This document shows positions 4,833 to 34,333 of a stretch of DNA of 60,999 bases, in pieces. The number at the start of each line of letters is the position of its first letter. Position 1 is the first letter of the stretch. The stretch is from a virus (Duplodnaviria > Caudoviricetes). Below the pieces are notes generated by a model. The model did not search any database. It saw only the letters and a list, made by a program, of their open reading frames with translations, and was not told the origin of the DNA. Made by a program: the position numbers and the translations under genes. The stretch covers positions 1-60,999 of IMG/VR virus record IMGVR_UViG_3300044568_003707; one strand, given 5' to 3'.

Positions 4833-6011
4833 ATGAACAAAATTGTTACATTGTTTTTGATGTTCTTTCTGTGGAACAATGTTTATGGTGCTGTGGGTAA
4901 ATTGACAGAGGTGACTGGCCCTACACAAGTTAGTAGGGCCAGTACCAAATTGGATGGTAAGGTTGATGTGGGTATAGAAATAGATGATACCATCGAAACT
5001 TTAAAATCGCGTGTTGGTATAACATTTGAAGATGGTACCAGAGTACAATGCACCGAGTTTAGCAAACTTGTTATAGATACGTTTGTGTATGATCCAAGTA
5101 GTGGAAAAGGAAAGCTTGCAATGAAGGCAACAATGGGAACGGTGAGATATGCTTCTGGATTGATTGCCAAAAATAATAAAGAAGAAGTAAAAGTAAAAAC
5201 TCCCACGGCATCTATATCAGTACGTGGCACAGATTTTTCAATGACAGTTGATGAATTGGGCAGAAGTTTGGTTATTCTTTTACCATCCCAGCCACAATTT
5301 GGACCTTCCGTTGTTGGTCAGATAACAGTGAGTAATGGACTTGGAACAGTTGTATTGACCAAAGCATATCAGGCTACATTTATAGCATCAAGTTCTGTTG
5401 TACCATCTTCTCCAGTGATTTTGAATTTTGACGACGAAAGTAAAGTGAACAATATGTTGTTGATTGATACACCAAAAAATGTCACACAAGCTGCAAAAGA
5501 AGCAAAGAAAGCATCTGTTGGTTCAGAAAAAGAAGATGATGGTGGAGACAAAAACAAAAAGATGGAAAAGAAAGAAACAAAGTCCGAGAGCAAATCCGCT
5601 GGTACATCAGTTGCTCAAGTTGACGGAGGTTCGACTGAGGCTCCAATCGAGGAGACCCACTCAACTGTCAATGTGGTCCAAGAAAATATTACTATAAAGC
5701 TTGATATAAACGCTATAAGTCCAAGCACCAATGTTGCTGTCATGGATGCAATTGCGGCAAAACAATCTATACAATCCGTACAACCGACATCAATAGCACC
5801 AATTATATCCACGCCAACTTCTACAGTAAATAATGGCTTTACAACGAACGGAACGCATGCTATATTGTATATAACCAATGGAAATAATGTGGTGTGGTAT
5901 ACTCTAAAGGCTGATGCCAATGCTATATTCAATATAACTCAAAATACTGAATCAAAGGAATATCCATTGAACTTCGGTTCTAAACTTAAAGTTAATATAA
6001 TTCAAAAATGA
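4833..6011 (+). CDS. FecR-domain protein
   Basis: Signal peptide; ITFEDGT, VKTPTASISVRGTDF, GQITVSN. Confidence 0.85.
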   Translation: MNKIVTLFLMFFLWNNVYGAVGKLTEVTGPTQVSRASTKLDGKVDVGIEIDDTIETLKSRVGITFEDGTRVQCTEFSKLVIDTFVYDPSSGKGKLAMKATMGTVRYASGLIAKNNKEEVKVKTPTASISVRGTDFSMTVDELGRSLVILLPSQPQFGPSVVGQITVSNGLGTVVLTKAYQATFIASSSVVPSSPVILNFDDESKVNNMLLIDTPKNVTQAAKEAKKASVGSEKEDDGGDKNKKMEKKETKSESKSAGTSVAQVDGGSTEAPIEETHSTVNVVQENITIKLDINAISPSTNVAVMDAIAAKQSIQSVQPTSIAPIISTPTSTVNNGFTTNGTHAILYITNGNNVVWYTLKADANAIFNITQNTESKEYPLNFGSKLKVNIIQK

Positions 6012-8068
6012 AATCTCATATTCTTAAACTATTTGGCGTCGGTTTGCTGATATTAACTGCACTTGTTGTGCTACGCATACAAGATTCATATCCAATAGAA
6101 GTAATGAGGCTCAAGGGATTGGACTATTATCAACGCACACAAGACAAAGTAAAAAGTGAAAATATCATCATTGTTGAAATTGATGAAAAAAGTTTAGAAG
6201 AAAAAGGACAATGGCCGTGGCCAAGAAATGAATTGGCAGATGGTATCAAGAAAGCATTTGAAAATGAAGCAGCTACTGTAGTATTGCCAATTATATTTGC
6301 GGAAAAAGATAGAATGGGTGGAGACGCAGCATTTGTGGAAATATTGGGAAAAGCACCCGTAATCACAGCACAATCTGCGGCAGTAAAGGGCAAAGGCGTA
6401 CCAGTATCAAGAGGTATGGCAACGATTGGCGGCAGTGCAGATGGATGGTTGTATGATTATCCCAACGCAATTGGACCGATAAAAGAAATAGGTGAATCGT
6501 CTGCTGGTGTGGGAATGTTATTGACGGCACCTGAACTTGATGGTGTGGTACGTCGCTTGCCGTTGGTTGTGCAAGTAAAAAAAGAAACATATCCAACTTT
6601 ACCTTTGGAAGTGTTGAGAGTGTTTGGAAATGAACCGAGCTATCAAGCAAAAATCAATGAAGCCGGAGTGCAAGCCATAAGAGTAAAAGGCTCTGCTCCA
6701 ATAAATACAGATGCTAGTGGTAGAGTATGGATAAACTTCAAATACAAGTTTGATAATATTTCATATACAGATAAAGATTGGAGCAAAGTCAAAGGTAAGA
6801 TTGTGGTTATAGCATTGACTGCTGAAGGATTAACAAACACGGTGGCAACTCCTGTAGGAACAGCATATGGACACGAAGTTAGTATGCAGACGCTACAAAT
6901 GTTGGTTGATGGAAACAGATTGGAACGCAAAGCGGAGTTTGATTTATATGAGTTGGCAGTTGGAACATTGCTTGGATTGATTCTTGTAACATCCGCTGCA
7001 TATCTTGGCTATGTTTATAATGGAATATTGATAAAAGTATCTGTGTCTATGTGTGTATTTATTGGATTTTATTTGTTCAACAAGCATGGTTATTTGATTG
7101 ATTATACTTGGCCGATTATGGCAGCATTTTTGCCGTGGGTTGGATCAATATTTATGAGATTTGTAATGGAGTTCAAATTGAAGATGCAAATCAAGAAGCA
7201 GTTTGGTACATATTTGTCGCCAGCACTGGTTGAAAAACTACAAAAAAATCCGGGCTTGCTCAAACTTGGTGGCGATGAAAGAGAATTGAGCATCATGTTC
7301 ACAGACGTTCGTGGATTTACATCTATTTCAGAACATTATGGTAAAAATGTACAAGGTCTGACAATGATAATGAACAGATATATGACTGCTATGACAGAAG
7401 CCATTCTAAAAAATGATGGTACTCTAGATAAATATATAGGGGATGCTCAGATGGCATTCTGGAATGCTCCATTGGATGATCCAAATCACGCCAAGAATGC
7501 CGTAAAAACGGCACTGCAAATGCTAAAGAGATTGGATACATTCAATGAAGAAATATCTAAGGAAGGAGTTCCGGCTTTTGGAATGGGATTGGGAATCAAC
7601 ACTGGGGGCGTCGTCGTTGGCAACATGGGTTCTACTCAGCGTTTCGACTATACTTGTCTTGGCGACCATGTAAATCTTGCTTCTAGATTAGAAGGTCAAA
7701 GCAAACCATATGGTGTACGTATTGTTATTGGTACAAGAACATTTGAGCACATCAGAAATGATTATCAATGTTTTGAACTTGATTGTATCGCCGTCAAAGG
7801 TAAAAAAGATGGTACGAGAATTTATACCGTTCTTGAAAAAAACTTGAGTGAAAGCCAGTATAACATAGTTGTATCTGGTCATTTTGCTTTTCTAAATGAT
7901 TACAGAATGCAAAGATGGGATAGTGCAATATCTCATGCCAATGAACTCATGACGCAGAATAAAGAAATGAAGAAGTATTATGAAATGATGATTGAAAGAA
8001 TGTTGGAACTTCGTACCAGCAATATTGACAAACATTGGGACGGTATTTTTAGAGCAACCTCCAAGTAA
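6008..8068 (+). CDS. CHASE2-domain class III adenylate/guanylate cyclase
   Basis: GQWPWPR and DGVVRRLPL (CHASE2); 3 TM segments; FTDVRGFT, DKYIGDA, GDHVNLASRLEG, VKGK. Confidence 0.93.
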   Translation: MKSHILKLFGVGLLILTALVVLRIQDSYPIEVMRLKGLDYYQRTQDKVKSENIIIVEIDEKSLEEKGQWPWPRNELADGIKKAFENEAATVVLPIIFAEKDRMGGDAAFVEILGKAPVITAQSAAVKGKGVPVSRGMATIGGSADGWLYDYPNAIGPIKEIGESSAGVGMLLTAPELDGVVRRLPLVVQVKKETYPTLPLEVLRVFGNEPSYQAKINEAGVQAIRVKGSAPINTDASGRVWINFKYKFDNISYTDKDWSKVKGKIVVIALTAEGLTNTVATPVGTAYGHEVSMQTLQMLVDGNRLERKAEFDLYELAVGTLLGLILVTSAAYLGYVYNGILIKVSVSMCVFIGFYLFNKHGYLIDYTWPIMAAFLPWVGSIFMRFVMEFKLKMQIKKQFGTYLSPALVEKLQKNPGLLKLGGDERELSIMFTDVRGFTSISEHYGKNVQGLTMIMNRYMTAMTEAILKNDGTLDKYIGDAQMAFWNAPLDDPNHAKNAVKTALQMLKRLDTFNEEISKEGVPAFGMGLGINTGGVVVGNMGSTQRFDYTCLGDHVNLASRLEGQSKPYGVRIVIGTRTFEHIRNDYQCFELDCIAVKGKKDGTRIYTVLEKNLSESQYNIVVSGHFAFLNDYRMQRWDSAISHANELMTQNKEMKKYYEMMIERMLELRTSNIDKHWDGIFRATSK

Positions 8069-13184: not shown

Positions 13185-13260
13185 GGGAATATAGTGAAAT
13201 TGGACATCACGACGCTTTGCGGAGGCGTTATTCTAGGTTCGAATCCTAGTATTCCCACCA
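13185..13260 (+). tRNA. tRNA-Arg(GCG)
   Basis: ACGCT-TTGCGGA-GGCGT; CCA. Confidence 0.9.
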
Positions 13261-13266
13261 TTTTAT

Positions 13267-13343
13267 GGAGACGCTGGCAAAGTAGAGCCGACCTCGCTTC
13301 GAACGAGTTATAACTATAGGTTAGAGTCCTATCGTCTCCACCA
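13267..13343 (+). tRNA. tRNA-Arg(TCG), atypical D/T loops
   Basis: CTCG-CTTCGAA-CGAG; T loop TTAGAGT; CCA. Confidence 0.78.
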
Positions 13344-13348
13344 ATTTT

Positions 13349-13502
13349 TGAGCGGCAGCGTGGAAGGACATGCAGCCTTGAGAAGTTCTATTACGCACAG
13401 TATATTGTACATAAAGCTGTGCCTCTGAAACGAAGCGATGACTACCTAATAGATCGGGTCAGATTCAATGTCATCAATAGGTATCAAACCCTACCCGCTC
13501 AA
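13349..13502 (+). ncRNA. tRNA-like RNA with ~100-nt central domain
   Basis: Acceptor TGAGCGG/CCGCTCA; D-like arm GCGT-GGAAGGAC-ATGC; T-like arm TAGG-TATCAAAC-CCTA; inner helices GCACAG/CTGTGC and TCTGA/TCAGA. Confidence 0.55.
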
Positions 13503-13509
13503 ATTAATT

Positions 13510-13713
13510 TTGAATAGCAGCTCGGAGTGTAGGAAAGTTTTTTCCTTTCCGGTACGAGCATGGGGTTAAACCATCAGCGGAAAAATAAGCAACGAAAAGC
13601 CTCTAGGTTCATAACAATATGTTAAATGGAAAAATAATAACATGTTGGAATTTATGCGTAACTAAGAAACTCGCTATAGTGTAGCTATATAAAGCAAAAC
13701 TACACCTATTCAA
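13510..13713 (+). ncRNA. Structured RNA, unknown (~200 nt)
   Basis: Closing stem TTGAATAG/CTATTCAA; several inner hairpins (GCTCG/CGAGC, GGAAA/TTTCC, GTGTAG/CTACAC). Confidence 0.45.
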
Positions 13714-13769
13714 TTAATTTTATGAGTTATAATAAAGTTTTGATATAATATATACTATATATATTATAT

Positions 13770-14012
13770 ATGAACATATCACCAATACAATCATCGGCTG
13801 AAACAAATAGTTCACCAGTAAACATTCAATCTGCGGCTAAAATATATAGTAAAAATAGCCCAGTATCACTCAGTACAAATGCATCTGGATTTTTTGCAAA
13901 TGCTGAAGCTGACGTTGTGCATGATCTTAAAAAAGCTTTGATGGCTGCAATAAATTGTGGAGATTTTGACAAAGCTATACATATTTTAAAATGTTTAAAA
14001 GAACTGGGATAA
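13770..14012 (+). CDS. Hypothetical protein
   Basis: 80-aa ORF with AT-rich leader. Confidence 0.6.
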   Translation: MNISPIQSSAETNSSPVNIQSAAKIYSKNSPVSLSTNASGFFANAEADVVHDLKKALMAAINCGDFDKAIHILKCLKELG

Positions 14013-14031
14013 TAATATATAAACAATTTAC

Positions 14032-14111
14032 AGAGAGTAAAGGGTACTGCCACTGGGATTATCGCGGTGGGTTCACGTAGCGTAATAAGCACACATGACC
14101 AAACACTCTCT
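14032..14111 (+). ncRNA. Structured RNA containing a 23S H44-like hairpin
   Basis: Closing stem AGAGAGT/ACTCTCT; GCGTAATAAGCACAC at 14080-14094. Confidence 0.4.
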
Positions 14112-14117
14112 AATATT

Positions 14118-14214
14118 TGAACAGAAGTCTAGTTGTTTGTAAAACAGGAGTCGGTGTAATCATATTGATGTTTTTCAACAGGCAACCGTGCGCGGAATAA
14201 TCGGGTGCTGTTCA
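14118..14214 (+). ncRNA. Structured inter-tRNA RNA, unknown
   Basis: Closing stem TGAACAG/CTGTTCA. Confidence 0.35.
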
Positions 14215-14221
14215 TTTTTTT

Positions 14222-14296
14222 GGCCCTATAGAATAGAAGTTAGTTCGCCTGACTTTCAATCAGGAGATGTGGGAGCGTTACCCACTGGGGCTACCA
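14222..14296 (+). tRNA. tRNA-Glu(TTC), atypical elbow
   Basis: CCTGA-CTTTCAA-TCAGG; D loop AG; T loop AGCGTTA; CCA. Confidence 0.85.
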
Positions 14297-14300
14297 ATTT

Positions 14301-14570
14301 TTGTTGAGGAGGTTGGCTTAGAGGCAGCAATCCTATAATGAGTAGAGTCCGTACTCCAAGCAAGTAAAAGTGCAGCGATGAATTCTTGAATTCTGCATTT
14401 TCCATTACCAACTATAATGGTTTTGCATGGAGGCAATTCAGACGATTGAACCGATAAGAACTAAGGAATTGACCTTAGCTCGGTGCCGAAAATGTAAGCG
14501 CAAGTATAGTTGTTATATATTTGGCCGCGAAACGGTATCAGCTCTTTTGGCGTAATAGCACACTCTTCAA
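14301..14570 (+). ncRNA. 23S rRNA L11-binding domain (H43-H44) mimic with 206-nt insertion
   Basis: GAGGAGGTTGGCTTAGAGGCAGCAATCCTATAATGAGT-[insert]-GCGTAATAGCACACTC aligns to 23S ~1053-1106. Confidence 0.75.
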
Positions 14571-14575
14571 AATAA

Positions 14576-14645
14576 CCCATGCCTGCACACGCAGGAAAGT
14601 TGGTATTTGGCACGGGAAACCGCCAACCATCTATCCTATCATGGG
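14576..14645 (+). ncRNA. Small structured RNA, unknown
   Basis: CCCATG/CATGGG closing stem; CCTGC/GCAGG and CGG-GAAA-CCG hairpins. Confidence 0.4.
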
Positions 14646-14656
14646 AACAATTTTAT

Positions 14657-14735
14657 GGCGATATCGTCTATGTTTGAAAAGGACAGGATATTCTCAATAT
14701 TCAGAGGTCGGTTCGACTCCCGACTATCGCCACCA
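14657..14735 (+). tRNA. tRNA-Glu(CTC)
   Basis: GGATA-TTCTCAA-TATTC; CCA. Confidence 0.82.
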
Positions 14736-14793
14736 TTTTATAATAAATAGTTCAAATTAGTTCAAATTCAAGATTTGAATGATATTTATGTAT

Positions 14794-15441
14794 ATGCACT
14801 ACTTGATATACAAGGTCACTAACAAAGTAAACAATAAAATTTATGTTGGTAAGCATAAAACAAATGACAAGAACGATAGCTATCTAGGGTCCGGCGCAAT
14901 TATTAAGAGGGCCGTTACGAAGTACGGTAAGGATGCTTTCCAAAAAGAAATACTTTACGAATGTGAAAACGAGGATGCGATGAACCGCAGAGAAGCCGAG
15001 ATAGTTGACGAAGAGTTCATAGCTCGTCAAGACACATATAATATAAAGCTCGGCGGTAATGGTGGATGGGACTTTATAAACAAGAATGCCCTTTTCAACG
15101 GAGTAAAACACCGCGCAGCGGCACGAGAAAATATAAAAAAAGCCAGTAAGGGATACAAAATTTGGTTTAAAAGTTTATCTACCGACGAGAGGGAAGAATA
15201 CATGGTAAAAAGGATGTTGGGAATTCGGCTATTTCAAGAGACGCATGGGGGCACTTTCAAAGGAAAGTCACACTCAGATTTAACGAAAGAAAAAATGCGA
15301 AAAGCGAGATTGGGTAAGGTGAGTGGAAAAGATAATCCATCATATGGAACAATGTGGATAACAAATGGTGTTGACAATAAGAAGATACACAGAGATACTA
15401 CGATTGCTGTTGGTTGGAAAAAAGGTAGAATAATAAAATAA
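14794..15441 (+). CDS. GIY-YIG/NUMOD3 homing endonuclease (Seg-like)
   Basis: LIYKVTNKVNNKIYVGKH; YLGSG; YNIKLGG; FKGKSHSDLTKEKM; GTMWITNG; GWKKGR. Confidence 0.9.
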   Translation: MHYLIYKVTNKVNNKIYVGKHKTNDKNDSYLGSGAIIKRAVTKYGKDAFQKEILYECENEDAMNRREAEIVDEEFIARQDTYNIKLGGNGGWDFINKNALFNGVKHRAAARENIKKASKGYKIWFKSLSTDEREEYMVKRMLGIRLFQETHGGTFKGKSHSDLTKEKMRKARLGKVSGKDNPSYGTMWITNGVDNKKIHRDTTIAVGWKKGRIIK

Positions 15442-15447
15442 TTTTAT

Positions 15448-15522
15448 TGGGATGTCGTATAAAGGCTATTACCTGCGGCTTTGACCCGCATGATCGTCGT
15501 TCAATTCGACGCATCCCAGCCA
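15448..15522 (+). tRNA. tRNA-Gln(TTG)
   Basis: TGCGG-CTTTGAC-CCGCA; CCA. Confidence 0.9.
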
Positions 15523-19554: not shown

Positions 19555-21528
19555 ATGAAATATAATAACACACAAAATAACTCGCTGCTTGTGAAGCTCT
19601 TTGCTTCTATGATGCTGTTTGTGGTCGCTGTGACCAGTGTATTTGCCATTCCGGGCATTACATCCACAAACCTACAAACAACGGCGGGTGTAACAGTTAC
19701 AGGTGCAGGTACTACTCTTAGTATCGTCGCCCCAAACAAGTCTGTGCTTACATGGCAGAACTTTGGAAGTGGCACGGATACTATTGCTATTGGAGATGCA
19801 CTAAACTATACACTTCCTTCCAATAATGCATCCGTACTAAACATTGTTGCTGGTGGAGCATCTTCAACCATCAACGGTACACTTTCCTCTAACGGTAATG
19901 TATATGTTCTGAATCCAAATGGCATTTTGATTGGTGGCAGTGCCCGAATTGATGTCAACCGTTTGGGCTTGAGCACATCCGACAATCCATCATTTGCTAG
20001 TTTTTATTTCCAGCAAAATGGATTTCTTCCGTCCCAAGACGGACTGGTTCCTGTTGCTGGTAATACAACCATCAACAATGGTGCAATCATCTCAGTAAGC
20101 GAAAACATTACTCTTGTTTCCAAGAACGTCACAATCAATGGTGTATTGTCTCAAGGAAATCTTGTGCTCAATGCTGATGGTAATGTTACTGTGGGTTCTG
20201 CTGGTATGGCTTATATCGCTGGCAATTTGACTATCAATAATCCAACTGGAACAACTACAATTGGTTCTGCTGGCAACAACACAATTATCACCAATAACCT
20301 AGTGGTCAATGGAAATTCTACAAGTGCGTTTTCTTCGGTTGCTACTGGCACAATACAAGCCAAGACGCTGAACGTCACGGCTGGAACAATTCTAGCCGAT
20401 CGTATCAGCACAAGCAACACAACCGTAACTGGCACAAACGTCACTGTTAATGTTGGTTCTGGTGCTGGTACGCCTTCTGTTACCGCAGTTGGTAATGGCA
20501 CAGTACAAATATCCGCTCCCGCATCTCTTGCCGTAAATGTCACCAATTCTGGTGTTGGTGCAACTAGCGTATCTGCTGGTGGCAATTTGATATTGGGCAA
20601 GGTGCAAGTTGAAGGTTTGGCTGGTGCTTCTTTTACTGGTGCCGCCGTGACTGACACTTCGTCCAGAATATTTGTTTATGGTGGTGCTGCGTTCACTGCA
20701 ACTGCTGGGAATGTCAATATCGACAAAGGACAACACAGTTTTGGTCCAGTTAGCGTATCCGCTACTGGCGAAGCCTTGATCTTTGAAGACGCTGCCACAC
20801 AGCTGAACGTTGTCAACACTCCAAAGCTAACATTGCGTTCCGCTGATTATGTTTTTCAAACTCCGACAACTGGTGTAGTTAATAGTGCATTGGTGTCTGT
20901 TGTGGGTGCTGGAAATATAACACTTGGTGCAGCCACAAACTCCGTTGGAAATTACACAATCACCGGAAACGATGTTGTGGTTGCCAACAACGGCGCATTG
21001 TCTATCTCCACGACTGCAACTGGTAACGCCTCCGTTACATCAACGGGTGCAGTAAATCTCGGTGGAACAACCGCAGGTGGCACACTAACAGTTACTTCTG
21101 CTGGAGCAATCACTCAAGCAGTTGATACCAAAGTCAGTTCGTTTGGATCTGTTCGTTTTGTTGGAACTGGATTGACACTATCAAATGCTGGCAACGGCTT
21201 TGGTGGCATCACAGTTGATGTTGGTACTGCCGGTACTGCCACACTCACAGAAGAAACAACTCTAAACCTCGTTTCTCTTCGCGCTGCTAATGCAACGGTG
21301 AAAAGTACATTTGATGTTATCACTACTGGTACATTGCCAGTAGTCGCTGATACATTCAATGTTGTTGTTGGTGGGGATTTTGTTCCTGCTGCAAACTTCC
21401 GCGCTGTCAATGGTATTACAGTATTGTCTGGTGGAAATGTTGACTTGAGCAATTTGAGTTTGATCACAAACTTGAATAACAAGAGCCCAAGCATCATTGC
21501 CAAGGGATACAAGGCTCCACAGCCATAA
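19555..21528 (+). CDS. Filamentous haemagglutinin-like (TpsA) exoprotein
   Basis: Signal peptide; TPS domain (LTWQNF, SVLNIV, STINGTL.SNGNVYVLNPNGI); G/T/N/V-rich beta-helix. Confidence 0.85.
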   Translation: MKYNNTQNNSLLVKLFASMMLFVVAVTSVFAIPGITSTNLQTTAGVTVTGAGTTLSIVAPNKSVLTWQNFGSGTDTIAIGDALNYTLPSNNASVLNIVAGGASSTINGTLSSNGNVYVLNPNGILIGGSARIDVNRLGLSTSDNPSFASFYFQQNGFLPSQDGLVPVAGNTTINNGAIISVSENITLVSKNVTINGVLSQGNLVLNADGNVTVGSAGMAYIAGNLTINNPTGTTTIGSAGNNTIITNNLVVNGNSTSAFSSVATGTIQAKTLNVTAGTILADRISTSNTTVTGTNVTVNVGSGAGTPSVTAVGNGTVQISAPASLAVNVTNSGVGATSVSAGGNLILGKVQVEGLAGASFTGAAVTDTSSRIFVYGGAAFTATAGNVNIDKGQHSFGPVSVSATGEALIFEDAATQLNVVNTPKLTLRSADYVFQTPTTGVVNSALVSVVGAGNITLGAATNSVGNYTITGNDVVVANNGALSISTTATGNASVTSTGAVNLGGTTAGGTLTVTSAGAITQAVDTKVSSFGSVRFVGTGLTLSNAGNGFGGITVDVGTAGTATLTEETTLNLVSLRAANATVKSTFDVITTGTLPVVADTFNVVVGGDFVPAANFRAVNGITVLSGGNVDLSNLSLITNLNNKSPSIIAKGYKAPQP

Positions 21529-23264: not shown

Positions 23265-23921
23265 ATGGCAAAAAAGATCAAAGTTAAACCGACTGATATA
23301 ATAAATAGTCCTCTGTTTGCTGGAGTGCCGCCGAAATTTGTAAAAAAAGCGGCTACTTTTTGTGAAGTAAAAGAGTATAGTGCTGGTTCATTTATAATAA
23401 ATGAAGGTGAAAAAGGAGACTTTATGTTTATTATACTTGAAGGCGAAGTAAATGTGCTAAAAGGACCAAAGAAGATGAAATTAGCCACACTTGGCAAAGG
23501 TGTATTTTTGGGAGAAGGTGCATTGGTTAGTAGATCACCAAGAAATGCAAGTATTGTAGCAAATAGCAGTGTTAAACTTGCTGTATTTGATCAAAATGGA
23601 TTTGATAAATTATCTGTTATGCATCCATGTATTCCTGTAACAATGATGAATATACACAATGAGCGATGCAAAGACACAGTGCGTAAACTCAATATAGTAA
23701 AATCAAAAGAATTTATATTGATGGCAGCAGTTGGATTGGTGTTGCTTGTAAAAAATTCACATAGTATACTTCCAATGAATCTACATGATATTGCAGATCA
23801 AATTGCAAGCTATATTCCAGATCAAGTTATGGCATTGGGTGGTCCAGCAGCAGCAGCAATTGGATTGAAATTAAAACAAATGGAAATGGGTGACATTGTT
23901 TCTAAATTAGATAAGATTTGA
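23265..23921 (+). CDS. Cyclic-nucleotide-binding domain protein with hydrophobic C-terminus
   Basis: IINEGEKGDFMFIILEGEV; FLGEGAL..SPRNASIVA. Confidence 0.88.
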   Translation: MAKKIKVKPTDIINSPLFAGVPPKFVKKAATFCEVKEYSAGSFIINEGEKGDFMFIILEGEVNVLKGPKKMKLATLGKGVFLGEGALVSRSPRNASIVANSSVKLAVFDQNGFDKLSVMHPCIPVTMMNIHNERCKDTVRKLNIVKSKEFILMAAVGLVLLVKNSHSILPMNLHDIADQIASYIPDQVMALGGPAAAAIGLKLKQMEMGDIVSKLDKI

Positions 23922-27556: not shown

Positions 27557-27793
27557 TTCTTCAACTTTATAAAAACATTATATAATAAGTATTTAATAAC
27601 AAACACTTGACTTTTTATAAAAACTGGTTCATAGTTATGGTTGTTGGGGTTAGAATAGTCATATAACCTACGGGTCTGTGACTTTTATATGAAAGGATAC
27701 ATACTATGCTCATTGCTATAGCATGTTACGCTGTTCTTGGCTTAATTGTCATTGCGGACAGCGATTATAACAGACAGTAAAACAGAAAATCAT

Positions 27794-27824
27794 AAAGAGG
27801 GTGGAATTTCCACCCTCTTTTTTT
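27794..27824 (+). terminator. Intrinsic terminator
   Basis: AAAGAGGGTGGAA/TTCCACCCTCTTT followed by a T tract. Confidence 0.75.
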
Positions 27825-27844
27825 GTGCTCGTATATTTATAAGT

Positions 27845-28699
27845 GTGATCAAACTGAAAGACATATTAGCAGAAGCCAAACTATACTCTTATTCTATAAA
27901 AGAAGTATTAGACAAGTTTCTACAGTTTGATGGAAAAACAATGATACTGTTTGATACAGAAACAGTTGGTTTGGAGCCAAATACTTCATATATTCAACTT
28001 ACACATATTGCTGCAATTGCATATGAAGGTTCTTCACTAAAAGAAATTGGAGAGTTTTCCAAAAAGGTAAATATTGGTTCCGCTTTGAACAATGCACTGA
28101 ATGATCCAAATAGTACAGAAGCAAAGCAGTTGGATAAAGAAATGAATAGAAGATTGAAAAAATATGGCAAGCCAGACTTGCATCCAAGAGATGCACTAAA
28201 AATGACTGGTTATGAAAATCCAAATGCAGAAAAGTTGGATGAAAAAGAAGCATTGATTCAATTTGAAAAATTTTTGAGTCAATTTGAAAATGTTGTGATA
28301 CTTGCTCACAATGCTACATTTGATATGAAATTTATTGAGGCTCGTAGAAAGTTAAATGGATTGCCGCCAACAAAAAGATATCCAGTATTAGACACAGTAA
28401 ACATATCACGATTTTTCTTTATACCAGCAATGCAAGCACTTGAAACAATACCAGAAGTTAAAACTATATTGGATGGTTTGCTTGCCAAGACAAAATATAA
28501 AAGTTATAGTTCAAGTCTTGGAAAACTTGGTGCGGTGTTGGGAGTTAAAGTTGATGGTTGGCACGATGCTAAAGAAGATGTAAAAATGCTTATGCAAGTG
28601 CTTCAAAAAATGATTGAATTTCTGAAAGCAAACTCAACAACAGATATTAAAAAATATATAGCACCAGCAGCAAAAAGATTTCGTAAATCAAAATTCTAA
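27845..28699 (+). CDS. DEDDh 3'-5' exonuclease (DnaQ-like)
   Basis: FDTETVGL; AHNATFD; LDT; HDAKEDV; GTG start after the TATATTTAT motif. Confidence 0.88.
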   Translation: MIKLKDILAEAKLYSYSIKEVLDKFLQFDGKTMILFDTETVGLEPNTSYIQLTHIAAIAYEGSSLKEIGEFSKKVNIGSALNNALNDPNSTEAKQLDKEMNRRLKKYGKPDLHPRDALKMTGYENPNAEKLDEKEALIQFEKFLSQFENVVILAHNATFDMKFIEARRKLNGLPPTKRYPVLDTVNISRFFFIPAMQALETIPEVKTILDGLLAKTKYKSYSSSLGKLGAVLGVKVDGWHDAKEDVKMLMQVLQKMIEFLKANSTTDIKKYIAPAAKRFRKSKF

Positions 28700-29101: not shown

Positions 29102-29821
29102 TTACATTAGATGCGGCAGATATGCTCTGCGAAGAACATCATTTGCATATTTATGATCAAACTCATAATTGAATTTACGATCTTCATATGCTTTCTTCAA
29201 TTCTATTTCATAATTGTCGGCAAGAAAGTTTAGCTGTTCCACTGTGTATGTTTCTGGTTGAGTTTTTACCAGCATTAGAAAAGCATGAACATTTGTGTCA
29301 TATTGCTTCATATTGACAGGAAAATAACCTTTTTCAAACAATGCTTTGCCGCAATTGGCCAATCTGAACAATTGCGTAAAATTTTTTGGACTAAAACCAT
29401 ACTTATCGAGGTGAGCCTTGCGTTTACTGCCAAGCTGACCTGTGCGTTCACCGTTGGCAAGACGCCGTTCACCCTGCATATAACCAAGCAAGCATCTAAA
29501 CATCTTGTCTGTGTCAACAAACTTTAACTTGTTTGTTTGTATTTCTTCAAATACATCACTTGTTTCAAGTAAGTTGTCAGAGAAAAGTATTTCAAGCGCA
29601 CCTGTGTTGCCATTGCGAAGAAGTTCAAAAAACTTACGAACTTCATAATAAACTATGTCGTCGGTTTCTTGCTTTTGAACATGATCCATACGCTCCAATC
29701 CAAGTATTTTGGATGGATCTGTATTTATGAATACACCTCTGTAATCAAGGTCGGACTCGGGAGTGTTGAGTCCATACGCTGTGCTGCCTCCCAAAGCTTT
29801 TACTAGCATTTTCATGATCAT
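29102..29821 (-). CDS. Pol-beta nucleotidyltransferase (YcgL/RlaP-like)
   Basis: GSTAYGLNTPESDLDYRGVF; YEVRKFFELLRNGN..LEILF. Confidence 0.85.
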   Translation of the reverse strand: MIMKMLVKALGGSTAYGLNTPESDLDYRGVFINTDPSKILGLERMDHVQKQETDDIVYYEVRKFFELLRNGNTGALEILFSDNLLETSDVFEEIQTNKLKFVDTDKMFRCLLGYMQGERRLANGERTGQLGSKRKAHLDKYGFSPKNFTQLFRLANCGKALFEKGYFPVNMKQYDTNVHAFLMLVKTQPETYTVEQLNFLADNYEIELKKAYEDRKFNYEFDHKYANDVLRRAYLPHLM

Positions 29822-33941: not shown

Positions 33942-34333
33942 GGGCTCGTTTTTAGATTCTACTCTATGAAATGAGTACAAGCCGCAAGCACAGAGTCTAA
34001 TGTCTCTGTATAATACCCGTTGGAAAACATAAATGCTAAGAGAAATCTTGCAAAGGTGTCTTTTCTTTCTGTTCGCAAGAACAGCGGAGCCGAGACACTT
34101 GTCGCAGCCTAATAAAATAGGCTGTCCGTTGTCCTTGTGACACAGATAACAAGTCAACAACGTTCATCATCTGGCCGTTTGTGCGAGATAGAAGATGGTA
34201 GCACAAATCAAATACTAAACTTCAACTTCAATGTGGTGCTCTACCAAACATTGATGTATTATAAGAGATAAGCTTGTATATGTTTGTAAGCTTTTTATAT
34301 AGCACCCGGATGCAACTTCCGGCGAGTCCACCA
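33942..34333 (+). ncRNA. ssrA: tmRNA
   Basis: GGGCTCG/CGAGTCC-A-CCA with G3.U70; AGATTCTAC; T arm; tag ORF 34035-34112 AKRNLAKVSFLSVRKNSGAETLVAA. Confidence 0.9.

Follow-up and report, generated by a model that had tools for sequence, protein, structure and literature searches.

What would a phage do with a copy of a ribosomal RNA domain placed between two of its tRNA genes? The question is raised by a 61-kb piece of DNA from an uncultured virus, an IMG/VR virus record estimated to be 19% complete, which was analysed over its whole length of 60,999 nucleotides and is called the window here. On its plus strand, positions 14297-14573 hold an element that resembles the GTPase-associated centre (GAC) of 23S rRNA (1051-1108 in E. 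coli numbering), the domain to which uL11 and thiostrepton bind. The element lies inside a 360-nt gap between two tRNA-Glu genes, 0 nt from the upstream gene and 83 nt from the downstream one. An earlier note on this DNA, made from the letters alone, had placed a GAC-like phage RNA here, and the sequences it quoted do sit at those positions between the two genes. The analysis leaves little doubt that this is a real, expressed GAC mimic under selection for its fold. The overall explanation that we prefer, with about even confidence, is a phage-specific stable non-coding RNA (ncRNA), a self-closed copy of the GAC that probably imitates the uL11 site off the ribosome.

The copied region comprises the tip of helix 42 (H42) together with H43 and H44 (1051-1108), and an expansion leaves H44 between positions 1090 and 1091. 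The parts of the element and its boundaries are as follows.

14222-14296, plus strand: tRNA-Glu(UUC) with encoded CCA (ARAGORN; Rfam tRNA, 54.4 bits), its 3' end forming the upstream boundary of the RNA
14297-14309, plus strand: 5' strand of the closing helix, equivalent to the H42 tip (covariance-model alignment)
14310-14334, plus strand: equivalent of H43 (23S 1057-1081; sequence match), with A1067 at 14320; this lineage has G1070 and A1076
14335-14339, plus strand: the A1082-U1086 pair and its UAA loop (23S comparison)
14340-14343, plus strand: G1087, A1088, G1089 and U1090 (23S comparison)
14344-14545, plus strand: lineage-specific multi-helix expansion domain of 202 nt, whose closing stem covaries at 4/4 pairs in the family
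14546-14549, plus strand: UUUG linker, conserved in the family
14550-14559, plus strand: H44 tip (1091-1100), GC-GUAAUA-GC = GCGUAAUAGC, with A1095 at 14554
14560-14562, plus strand: A1101, C1102 and A1103, the A at 14560 being of the family-invariant kind
14563-14573, plus strand: 3' strand of the closing helix (covariance-model alignment and covariation; the relative L136 matches the window up to 14572)
14576-14645, plus strand: optional 3' domain of two hairpins, closed by CCCAUG/CAUGGG (fold z -3.27)
14657-14735, plus strand: tRNA-Glu(CUC) (ARAGORN; Rfam tRNA, 37.3 bits), its 5' end forming the downstream boundary

In the closing helix, as placed by the covariance-model alignment, the partners of 14297 and 14299-14303 are 14568-14573, and those of 14306-14308 are 14563-14565. 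Positions 14304-14305 face 14566-14567 as two U.U oppositions, and G14309 corresponds to position 1056.

To establish the likeness to 23S rRNA, which the earlier note had given as a match to about 1053-1106, the element was compared with 23S references: two entries from an E. coli K-12 copy (L121 and L122), an enterobacterial-type 23S located in a viral-contig record (L106), and a Firmicutes-type 23S piece from a Paenibacillus phage record (L126). Positions 14306-14343 correspond to 23S 1053-1090 and 14550-14565 to 1091-1106, and 43/54 positions (80%) are identical to L106 (29/38 and 14/16 in the two halves), so that this likeness holds. The identity is 30/38 and 14/16 against the E. coli K-12 copy L121, and 31/38 and 14/16 against the Firmicutes-type L126. 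Eight of the 11 differences from L106 fall in four base pairs, all of which are still Watson-Crick:

1053/1106: C-G in 23S, G-C in the element
1058/1080: U-A in 23S, G-C in the element
1082/1086: U-A in 23S, A-U in the element
1090/1101: A-U in 23S, U-A in the element

Three of these compensatory changes had been named before, and 1058/1080 makes a fourth, so the observation is slightly stronger than first stated. The remaining three differences are unpaired (A1070G, C1076A and A1089G). The GAGU at 1087-1090 is native to Firmicutes-type 23S and therefore no peculiarity of the mimic. A blastn search with 14297-14350 matched 5,423 of 5,426 E. coli genomes, with the best five rows all in 23S genes; these matches are weak on their own (E 0.3-4). 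In the reference L121 (position 152; E. coli K-12 NZ_CP047127, one rrn copy), position 1053 is a G where L106 has C, and this G would oppose G1106.

Relatives of the element were sought at three levels. A blastn search against 50,697 phage records matched the first 43 nt only, at 93% identity, in unannotated DNA of eight Eneladusvirus records, among them Serratia phage BF and six Erwinia phages. At the BF locus the 3' half follows 213 nt beyond the 5' half, and the closing stem differs in sequence from that of the window and still pairs. An exact-pattern scan of IMG/VR with the H43 loop region found at least 117 loci, with 95 distinct sequences among the matches listed; three of these are true 23S, 81 carry the H44-tip motif, and the rest run off the end of the locus or have no motif. 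In the 81 members the H44-tip motif lies 76-363 nt downstream, and the bases after it are complementary to the ones that precede the 5' half. A second scan, with the 3' motif alone, found at least 119 loci, and among the matches listed 129 of 140 distinct sequences have the 5' half upstream. The pooled scans give at least 142 distinct members, with inserts of 40-364 nt (median 138).

The family is defined here by a covariance model (R1) built from an alignment (A1) of the shortest-insert members, made with MAFFT; of 35 members in which no more than 175 nt separate the 3' motif from the anchor, 30 remained after removal of five near-duplicates. The structure given to A1 consists of the rRNA-derived pairs plus the insert-closing stem, and the window was absent from this training alignment. 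In A1, 92.8% of the cells are paired; shuffles give 70.1%, and 0/500 of them attain the figure observed. Both sides change in 13/21 pairs. The score for covariation is 0.581; shuffles give 0.143, and registers slid by 1-3 columns no more than 0.184. The closing helix covaries at 6/6 pairs and the insert-closing stem at 4/4; pair 1058-1080 shows four pair types, and 1082-1086 occurs as UA 14, CG 10 and AU 2. The four pairs compensated in the window also covary across the 30 relatives. Run on the window, R1 gives a full-length match at 14297-14575 (89.1 bits, E 1.6e-19, model positions 1-171 of 171) and no second copy. A covariance model from related phages, which the earlier note had called for, thus exists, matches the window and comes with covariation in the homologues. 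The match to the family model and the covariation of the four pairs make this more than a chance likeness. The features that mark membership are all present in the window: the self-closing helix, the expansion at 1090/1091 with a stem of its own, UUUG, the GCGUARNAGC tip, A1101 and same-strand tRNAs.

Full-length R1 copies occur in the cultured phages Pseudomonas pf16, Aeromonas 4_4572, Xanthomonas XacN1, Cronobacter GAP32 and Serratia BF. The pf16 copy occupies about 29410-29609 on the minus strand of KU873925, between tRNA-Asn and tRNA-Pro, and that of Aeromonas 4_4572 lies just 5' of tRNA-Met. Pectobacterium phage CBB and the Pseudomonas phages Astolliot, Milchi and UNO-G1W1 are candidates matched by blastn only. 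Across 185,579 prokaryote species, each represented by a single genome, a search for the 3' motif gave 88 matches, 37 of them full elements, mostly on contigs of metagenome-assembled genomes, with a few in isolate genomes of Clostridia; the contig labels are Clostridia, Bacteroidota, Proteobacteria, Chloroflexota, Nitrospirota and others. A further 47 of the 88 have no 5' half, and the ten of these that were examined are unrelated sequence except for one CRISPR spacer; such chance matches are expected at about this number in 596 Gb, and 4/88 lie too close to the end of the locus to judge. By these results the family is in essence a viral one, with hosts from many phyla. The spacer just mentioned lies in a Thiothrix fructosivorans genome (L231, about 5941-5972, with repeat GTTCACTGCCGGATAGGCAGCTTAGAAA) and matches the 3' end of the mimic, UUUGGCGUAGCAGCACACC..., from which it follows that a host acquired immunity against a phage via this element.

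Could the element nevertheless be a captured and decaying piece of host 23S, possibly split by an intron or a mobile element? The 80% identity over 54 nt would fit such an origin, and true 23S pieces do occur in phage records (L126, L036, L089 and L106). In those pieces the 3' motif follows 31 nt after the 5' anchor and the sequence then continues into 23S; a match in Paenibacillus phage Pd_22F (58 bits) proved to be such a true 23S piece and was removed from the family. In the window, by contrast with a genuine 23S gene or fragment, the flanks are tRNAs, H44 is interrupted by 206 nt and Rfam gives no large-subunit (LSU) rRNA match. A covarying self-closing stem replaces the continuation into H41/H42, and the family, with more than 140 members in unrelated phages, has invariants of its own that are absent from 23S (A1101 in 80/81 and the UUUG linker). 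No Rfam intron model matches over the insert at E<=10, and purifying selection is visible. Covariation and the family-specific invariants refute this explanation, which retains practically no likelihood. The argument of the earlier note for selection on the fold, against a decaying rRNA scrap, is borne out by the covarying pairs, the self-closing stem, the number of relatives and the presence of the element in RNA libraries.

Rfam was also searched for other RNA families. At the gathering score, the whole window gave tRNAs and a tmRNA, with no LSU rRNA and no match to the element; at E<=10, the region 13340-15450 gave tRNAs and chance matches only (for example snoRNA Afu_191, with 20 bits where the gathering score is 60), none of them to the element. 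An already described family, which the earlier note had named as a possible undoing of its reading, was therefore not encountered in Rfam at either threshold.

Which positions are conserved indicates what the fold may be kept for. Each scan fixes one half by an exact pattern, and conservation is therefore readable only in the other half. Among the members found from the 3' motif (123 without indels), G1059, U1060, G1063, C1072 and C1075 are invariant (123/123), 122/123 have G1071, A1073, G1074 and A1077, and 113/123 have A1067. Position 1061 varies (U 93, A 20, G 7, C 3), and 109/123 retain C1076. The H43 stem changes only rarely, and then with compensation, as for instance in L146, L202 and L208. 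Among the 81 members found from the 5' motif, G1091, C1092, G1093, G1099 and C1100 are kept in 81/81, as are the pairs G1091-C1100 and C1092-G1099; A1095 is kept in 78, A1098 in 79, A1101 in 80, A1084 in 78 and A1085 in 70. The UUUG linker is kept as U 79, U 78, U 73 and G 73; no such constraint is visible at 1096 (A 53, G 25, U 3) or at 1097 (U 44, C 26, A 10, G 1).

Conserved bases that belong to the tertiary fold include U1060, G1071, C1072, A1084 and A1085 and the pairs G1091-C1100 and C1092-G1099, and the 23S GAC has tertiary triples beyond the one formed by A1085, among them those of G1071 and C1072. A1067 and A1095 are exposed in the 23S GAC and dispensable for folding and for uL11 binding, and they are central to contacts with thiostrepton, with factors and with the tRNA elbow. 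Most of the invariant bases are builders of the tertiary fold. In 23S, A1085 forms an A-minor triple with G1055-C1104 (PMC1919483). That A1067 and A1095 are kept although the fold can do without them, while the neighbouring 1096 and 1097 vary, suggests that a ligand-facing surface is under selection besides the fold.

The next question is whether the element is made as RNA. In a run index, the sampled words of the sequence are present at 97-100% in 14 lake or freshwater DNA runs and at 38-51% in six metatranscriptome runs; from rows X21-X24 they are almost absent. Four RNA runs, three from freshwater in 2025 and one from an estuary in 2018 (at least two habitats and years), were mapped on 13950-14850, and contigs of the four libraries cover 14297-14645. 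A 291-nt contig (14343-14633) and a 311-nt stretch (14325-14635) agree with the window at every position. One contig starts at 14297, the first base after the CCA of the upstream tRNA, and three stop at 14633-14635 while the DNA continues; these coincident stops are a weak hint of discrete RNA ends. Contig depths are 10-158 on the element and 2-4 on the few flank contigs, values unfit for ranking the parts. The tRNAs are uncovered, as are 14663-14850 in the four RNA runs and most of 13950-14290 in three, and these gaps are uninformative. Very deep 32-nt contigs at 14305-14341 were set aside as true 23S of other organisms, as they continue into 'AGAAAGCGTAA...'. The earlier note had named the lack of a discrete transcript as a possible refutation; the element is present in RNA libraries, and discrete ends are weakly hinted at.

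A further RNA contig of 200 nt, from run X19, passes directly from 14476-14645 into 14299-14328. This is what a circular or head-to-tail RNA may give; the 14645-14299 junction has 30 letters on its short side, against a bridging threshold of 31, does not figure among the joints tabulated for the run, and is a hint only.

What is the insert that divides H44? The 206-nt interruption (14344-14549) consists of the 202-nt expansion domain and the UUUG linker, and it is closed, as the earlier note had stated, by AGAGU (14344-14348) and GCUCU (14541-14545). Across the family the insert sits at the same site and its length varies continuously from 40 to 364 nt; it is a lineage-specific expansion at the constant site 1090/1091 and no one-off insertion. 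Group I and group II intron models gave no match over 14344-14549 at E<=10, and the open reading frames (ORFs) in the insert code for only 30-52 aa. The insert-bearing fold of 14297-14656 has a z of -2.88. A near-twin contig, L086, has 37 differences in 13257-13964 (708 nt) and none in 13965-14778. The relative L136 keeps the element with 15 differences, 13 of them inside the insert domain. One RNA-library variant combines 14373 C>U with 14395 G>A, which are partners in the predicted minimum-free-energy (MFE) structure, and L136 together with two RNA-library variants yields one compensated pair and three wobble-compatible changes. Within the predicted structure of the insert, support reaches the hairpin 14367-14401 and the stem 14360-14364/14422-14426 only; the rest is predicted.

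A second 23S echo inside the insert had also been proposed in the earlier note, which took GCCGAAAATGTA to resemble the 23S sequence just 3' of the domain. The match to E. coli is 10/12, which is at chance level when the 81 inserts and their shuffles are taken together; the reading as a copy of the uL11-binding GAC under conservation of its fold stands, and the additional echo was dropped. A 13-nt identity of GCCGAAAATGTAA to Firmicutes-type 23S was likewise rejected, since its E of 0.006 holds for a single query and 81 inserts were queried. As a Kt-42-like kink-turn, GCCGAAAATGTAA has no partner strand that could be found by eye. The 81 inserts searched against E. coli 23S, 16S and 5S (blastn-short) gave a best match of 24.3 bits, against 24.3-30.2 in ten shuffled sets. 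Against Firmicutes-type 23S some bins rise above the shuffle maximum, but these represent one shared module at one place and are not independent.

That module, near the end of the insert, is conserved in 36/142 members (for example L085, L047, L127 and L123, the last being pf16). In order, it reads RAAGUR, CACCCC, a hairpin of 3 bp whose loop is GNRA-like and whose third pair covaries, and GGUAAGG, and it stands 10-12 nt before the insert end (11 nt in 33/36); the window has no evident equivalent. The module and 23S, near E. coli position 1685, have CCCCGUAACU in common, perhaps by chance.

Another hairpin recurs in three of the 142 members, L083, L028 and L159, whose inserts measure about 310-325 nt. 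It resembles the sarcin-ricin loop (SRL) of 23S rRNA:

L083 8491-8530, minus strand: SRL-like hairpin
L028 3775-3814, minus strand: SRL-like hairpin
L159 7825-7864, minus strand: SRL-like hairpin

The loop, AGUACGAGAGGAA, agrees with the E. coli SRL (L122) at 12/12 positions in L083, 11/12 in L028 and 11/12 in L159, and covariation is seen in the closing stems. Against the three members observed with such a loop at one mismatch or fewer, the mean for shuffled inserts is 0.03. The hairpin was not found in the insert of the window. As judged from these loops, the RNAs of the three members would copy both rRNA elements of the factor-binding site.

Downstream of the closing helix, only 1/200 shuffles folds as well as the 70-nt 3' domain (14576-14645). 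It is present in the window phage and its near-twin L086, the RNA-library contigs run through it to 14633-14645, and ARAGORN does not call it a tRNA. L136 lacks 14573-14654, and the 3' hairpin domain is therefore an optional add-on. Upstream of the element, window positions 14034-14112 contain a stretch, GAGAGU ... AGCGUAAUAAGCACAC ... ACUCUC, that resembles the 3' half of the mimic inside a closing stem of its own and has an H44-tip-like motif with one extra A. R1 does not match this look-alike, and the fold of 14013-14221 has a z of -1.40, with 14/200 shuffles as good.

Does the element act on the tRNA genes around it? Within the family, a same-strand tRNA ends at most 50 nt upstream in 23/81 members, starts at most 150 nt downstream in 26/81 and lies within 1 kb in 55/81 (ARAGORN), and many members have tRNAs within 15 nt on both sides. 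This linkage would suit an action in cis, in which the RNA serves as a spacer for folding, processing or stabilising the array, or as a platform on which tRNA elbows dock, much as tRNA elbows contact A1067 and uL11 on the ribosome. A spacer, however, needs no near-invariant copies of more than 40 rRNA positions. Moreover, 17/81 members have no tRNA in the locus examined, including Serratia phage BF (3-kb locus), and in BF and Cronobacter GAP32 the element stands between protein genes. Action in cis is accordingly very unlikely.

The position in BF and GAP32, where an ORF begins about 30 nt downstream, would rather recall a cis-regulatory operator that controls the downstream gene via uL11 or uL10, in the manner of ribosomal-protein (r-protein) leaders; mimicry of rRNA is known in principle from r-protein mRNA leaders. 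In the window and in many relatives, however, a tRNA gene comes next, and no Rfam leader matches. A neighbour search (all-against-all blastp of 1,060 ORFs from 80 member loci and the window) found no recurrent neighbouring protein family, downstream or otherwise; the best clusters, homing-endonuclease-like, come from 7/81 sources. A gene for uL11 was found in 0/49 mimic-bearing records, which include 21 virus records at least 90% complete and five cultured-phage records, while the same search was positive in all 14 control genomes. An operator is hence highly improbable. The bL12 domain occurs in 4/49 mimic-bearing records, two of them above the cut-off, with no co-occurrence with the mimic. 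Promoter and terminator scans of 13300-15500 in the window found no informative site adjoining the element.

The explanation preferred here is instead a free, self-closed imitation of the uL11 site, for which the following mechanism is proposed. The element would be transcribed together with the tRNA array and excised by tRNA-processing enzymes, with a putative RNase P site at the 5' end of tRNA-Glu(CUC) at 14657. It would take the same tertiary structure as the rRNA domain and bind uL11 away from the ribosome; the partner would be the uL11 of the host, since the phages have no uL11 gene of their own (0/49 records). Binding of uL11 in the cell is judged moderately probable from the likeness of the two RNAs. 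The RNA-uL11 particle would then imitate the base of the ribosomal stalk and titrate whatever reads that surface. Candidates are uL11 itself, a translation GTPase, or a weapon of the host or of a competitor directed against the GAC. Titration of uL11 would leave relaxed ribosomes and less RelA signalling, blunting RelA activation. The three ligand readings (uL11 titration, a toxin or thiopeptide decoy, and GTPase capture) are compatible with each other; any single downstream purpose is distinctly doubtful.

Several observations weigh against this picture. The ascertainment is biased, as members were found via exact patterns in one conserved half. In the lineage of the window, position 1076 is A, as in only 10/123 of the 3'-motif members, which turns the G1062-C1076 pair into G.A. 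The binding of uL11 is expected from likeness alone, the insert enters H44 itself, where it may clash with uL11, and the closing helix is a plain variable stem, so that the copy does not extend to the uL10 site, H42 and its kink-turn. Four of the insert variants, at 14358, 14400, 14447 and 14464, break predicted MFE pairs. Finally, the RNA evidence comes from Logan contigs, which are uninformative on the strand, ends and level of an RNA, and RNA libraries can contain DNA.

If a surface is kept for a ligand, the ligand could be a weapon. An RNA with or without uL11 might absorb toxins or antibiotics directed at the GAC and so shield the ribosomes of the host; the proposed targets are Tre23-type ADP-ribosyltransferases, rRNA nucleases and thiopeptides, thiostrepton being an example. 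A GAC-directed antibacterial toxin does exist: Tre23 ADP-ribosylates 23S within 1095-1098 of helix 44 and impairs the GTPase activity of EF-G (PMC8661411). The retention of the exposed A1067 (113/123) and A1095 (78/81) would suit a decoy, as would the location in tRNA arrays, near a phage tmRNA and among genes that sustain translation, and the SRL-like hairpin of the three relatives, the SRL being the other classic rRNA target of toxins. On the other hand, Tre23 is an effector of the type VI secretion system and no phage-triggered system, positions 1096 and 1097 inside its mapped window vary freely, and nothing in this analysis ties the mimic to hosts with such toxins. We know of no anti-phage defence system that targets the GAC. 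A decoy of this kind is regarded as unlikely.

The same conserved A1067 and A1095 face the translation factors, and the GAC and the SRL jointly form the factor-binding site (PMC8661411). The RNA, probably with uL11, might thus be a portable docking site that captures or mis-activates EF-G, the EF-Tu ternary complex, IF2, RF3 or RelA, through which the phage would retune translation or the stringent response. The SRL-like hairpin of L083, L028 and L159 speaks for such a site. It is absent, however, from the insert of the window and from 139/142 members, and thus no core function of the family; the three carriers look like one lineage, which points to a single evolutionary event. To our knowledge, isolated GAC RNA is not known to bind factors tightly. 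Factor docking is accordingly thought rather improbable. A broader version, put forward tentatively and also unlikely, joins these elements: with the GAC always and the SRL in one lineage, bulk RNA from tRNA operons together with host uL11 would present a free pseudo-ribosome surface that captures GTPases, RelA or effectors directed at the GAC or SRL, possibly in a circular or head-to-tail form in the lake-phage lineage.

Other features of the window and of the relatives are recorded here in their own right. The window carries 36 tRNA genes on its plus strand (ARAGORN) and, in addition to these and the mimic, a tmRNA gene at 33942-34333 (Rfam, 68.2 bits). A SegE-like GIY-YIG gene lies downstream of the element at 14779-15441. 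Signalling cargo that is unusual for a phage is found at 4833-8068, 19555-21528, 23265-23921 and 27746-28699; the cargo proteins include a FecR-domain protein, a CHASE2 plus adenylate/guanylate-cyclase protein, a TPS-secretion-domain protein with DUF5649 repeats, a cyclic-nucleotide-binding protein and an RNase T-like exonuclease. In Xanthomonas phage XacN1 (L124), the mimic (1194-1436) begins 12 nt beyond a gene with the annotation 2'-5' RNA ligase (532-1182), a single case.

The family is widespread, with more than 115 loci in each of the two viral-contig scans and copies in several cultured phages, and tractable carriers exist in Pseudomonas putida with phage pf16 and in Serratia with phage BF. 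If the RNA binds uL11 or translation factors, it would represent a new viral route to manipulate translation, the stringent response or rRNA-directed immunity. The 142 or more natural GAC variants, with their built-in expansion domains, also provide material for structural work. No description of such an RNA was found in open-access full text or bioRxiv, where supplementary motif lists could hold one, and a term search within the 224-motif paper (PMC5737381) gave none. A free-standing, virus-encoded copy of a ribosomal functional centre seems new, as none is described in Rfam 15 or in the searchable open literature.

How, then, does the mimic compare with known systems? With the 23S GAC it shares the helices, the 1082-1086 pair, A1084 and A1085, G1071, C1072, the H44 tip GC-GUAAUA-GC, A1067 and A1095. 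It differs in being free-standing, self-closed by a variable stem without continuation into H42/H41, and outside an rRNA operon, and in having the 202-nt domain and UUUG at 1090/1091, an invariant A1101, relaxed positions 1096 and 1097, and flanking tRNAs. The mRNA operators of r-proteins, such as the L10 leader and the L1 site on the L11-operon mRNA, are partial rRNA mimics in the 5' untranslated regions of the genes they regulate. Like them, the mimic is an off-ribosome RNA imitating an rRNA site that binds an r-protein; unlike them, it is a near-complete copy of the domain, is present in RNA libraries as its own RNA and has no r-protein gene nearby, and in this locus no Rfam leader was matched at E<=10, a tRNA lies downstream, and the mimic-bearing records gave no uL11 gene.

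GOLLD and ROOL are large RNAs of phages and prophages that often lie close to tRNA genes; like the mimic, they are structured ncRNAs clustering with tRNAs. In size the mimic falls below them, and it has a recognisable ribosomal template, whereas those two have no likeness to rRNA and have Rfam families of their own, which gave no match here; ROOL is a structured phage-associated RNA of unassigned function (PMC5737381). With tRNA-punctuated ncRNAs the mimic shares its place between tRNA or tRNA-like units and, putatively, a release of the RNase P/Z type. Such release is exemplified by MALAT1/mascRNA in vertebrates and by the small stable RNAs in the tRNA cluster of phage T4; in the mimic, unlike in these, the cargo is a copy of an rRNA domain. 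The pseudo-ToxI of phage PhiTE is a phage RNA decoy that counters a host toxin by copying the antitoxin RNA of an abortive-infection system (PMC3475682). Like pseudo-ToxI, the mimic is a phage RNA that imitates an RNA of the host, and its template is a domain of the ribosome.

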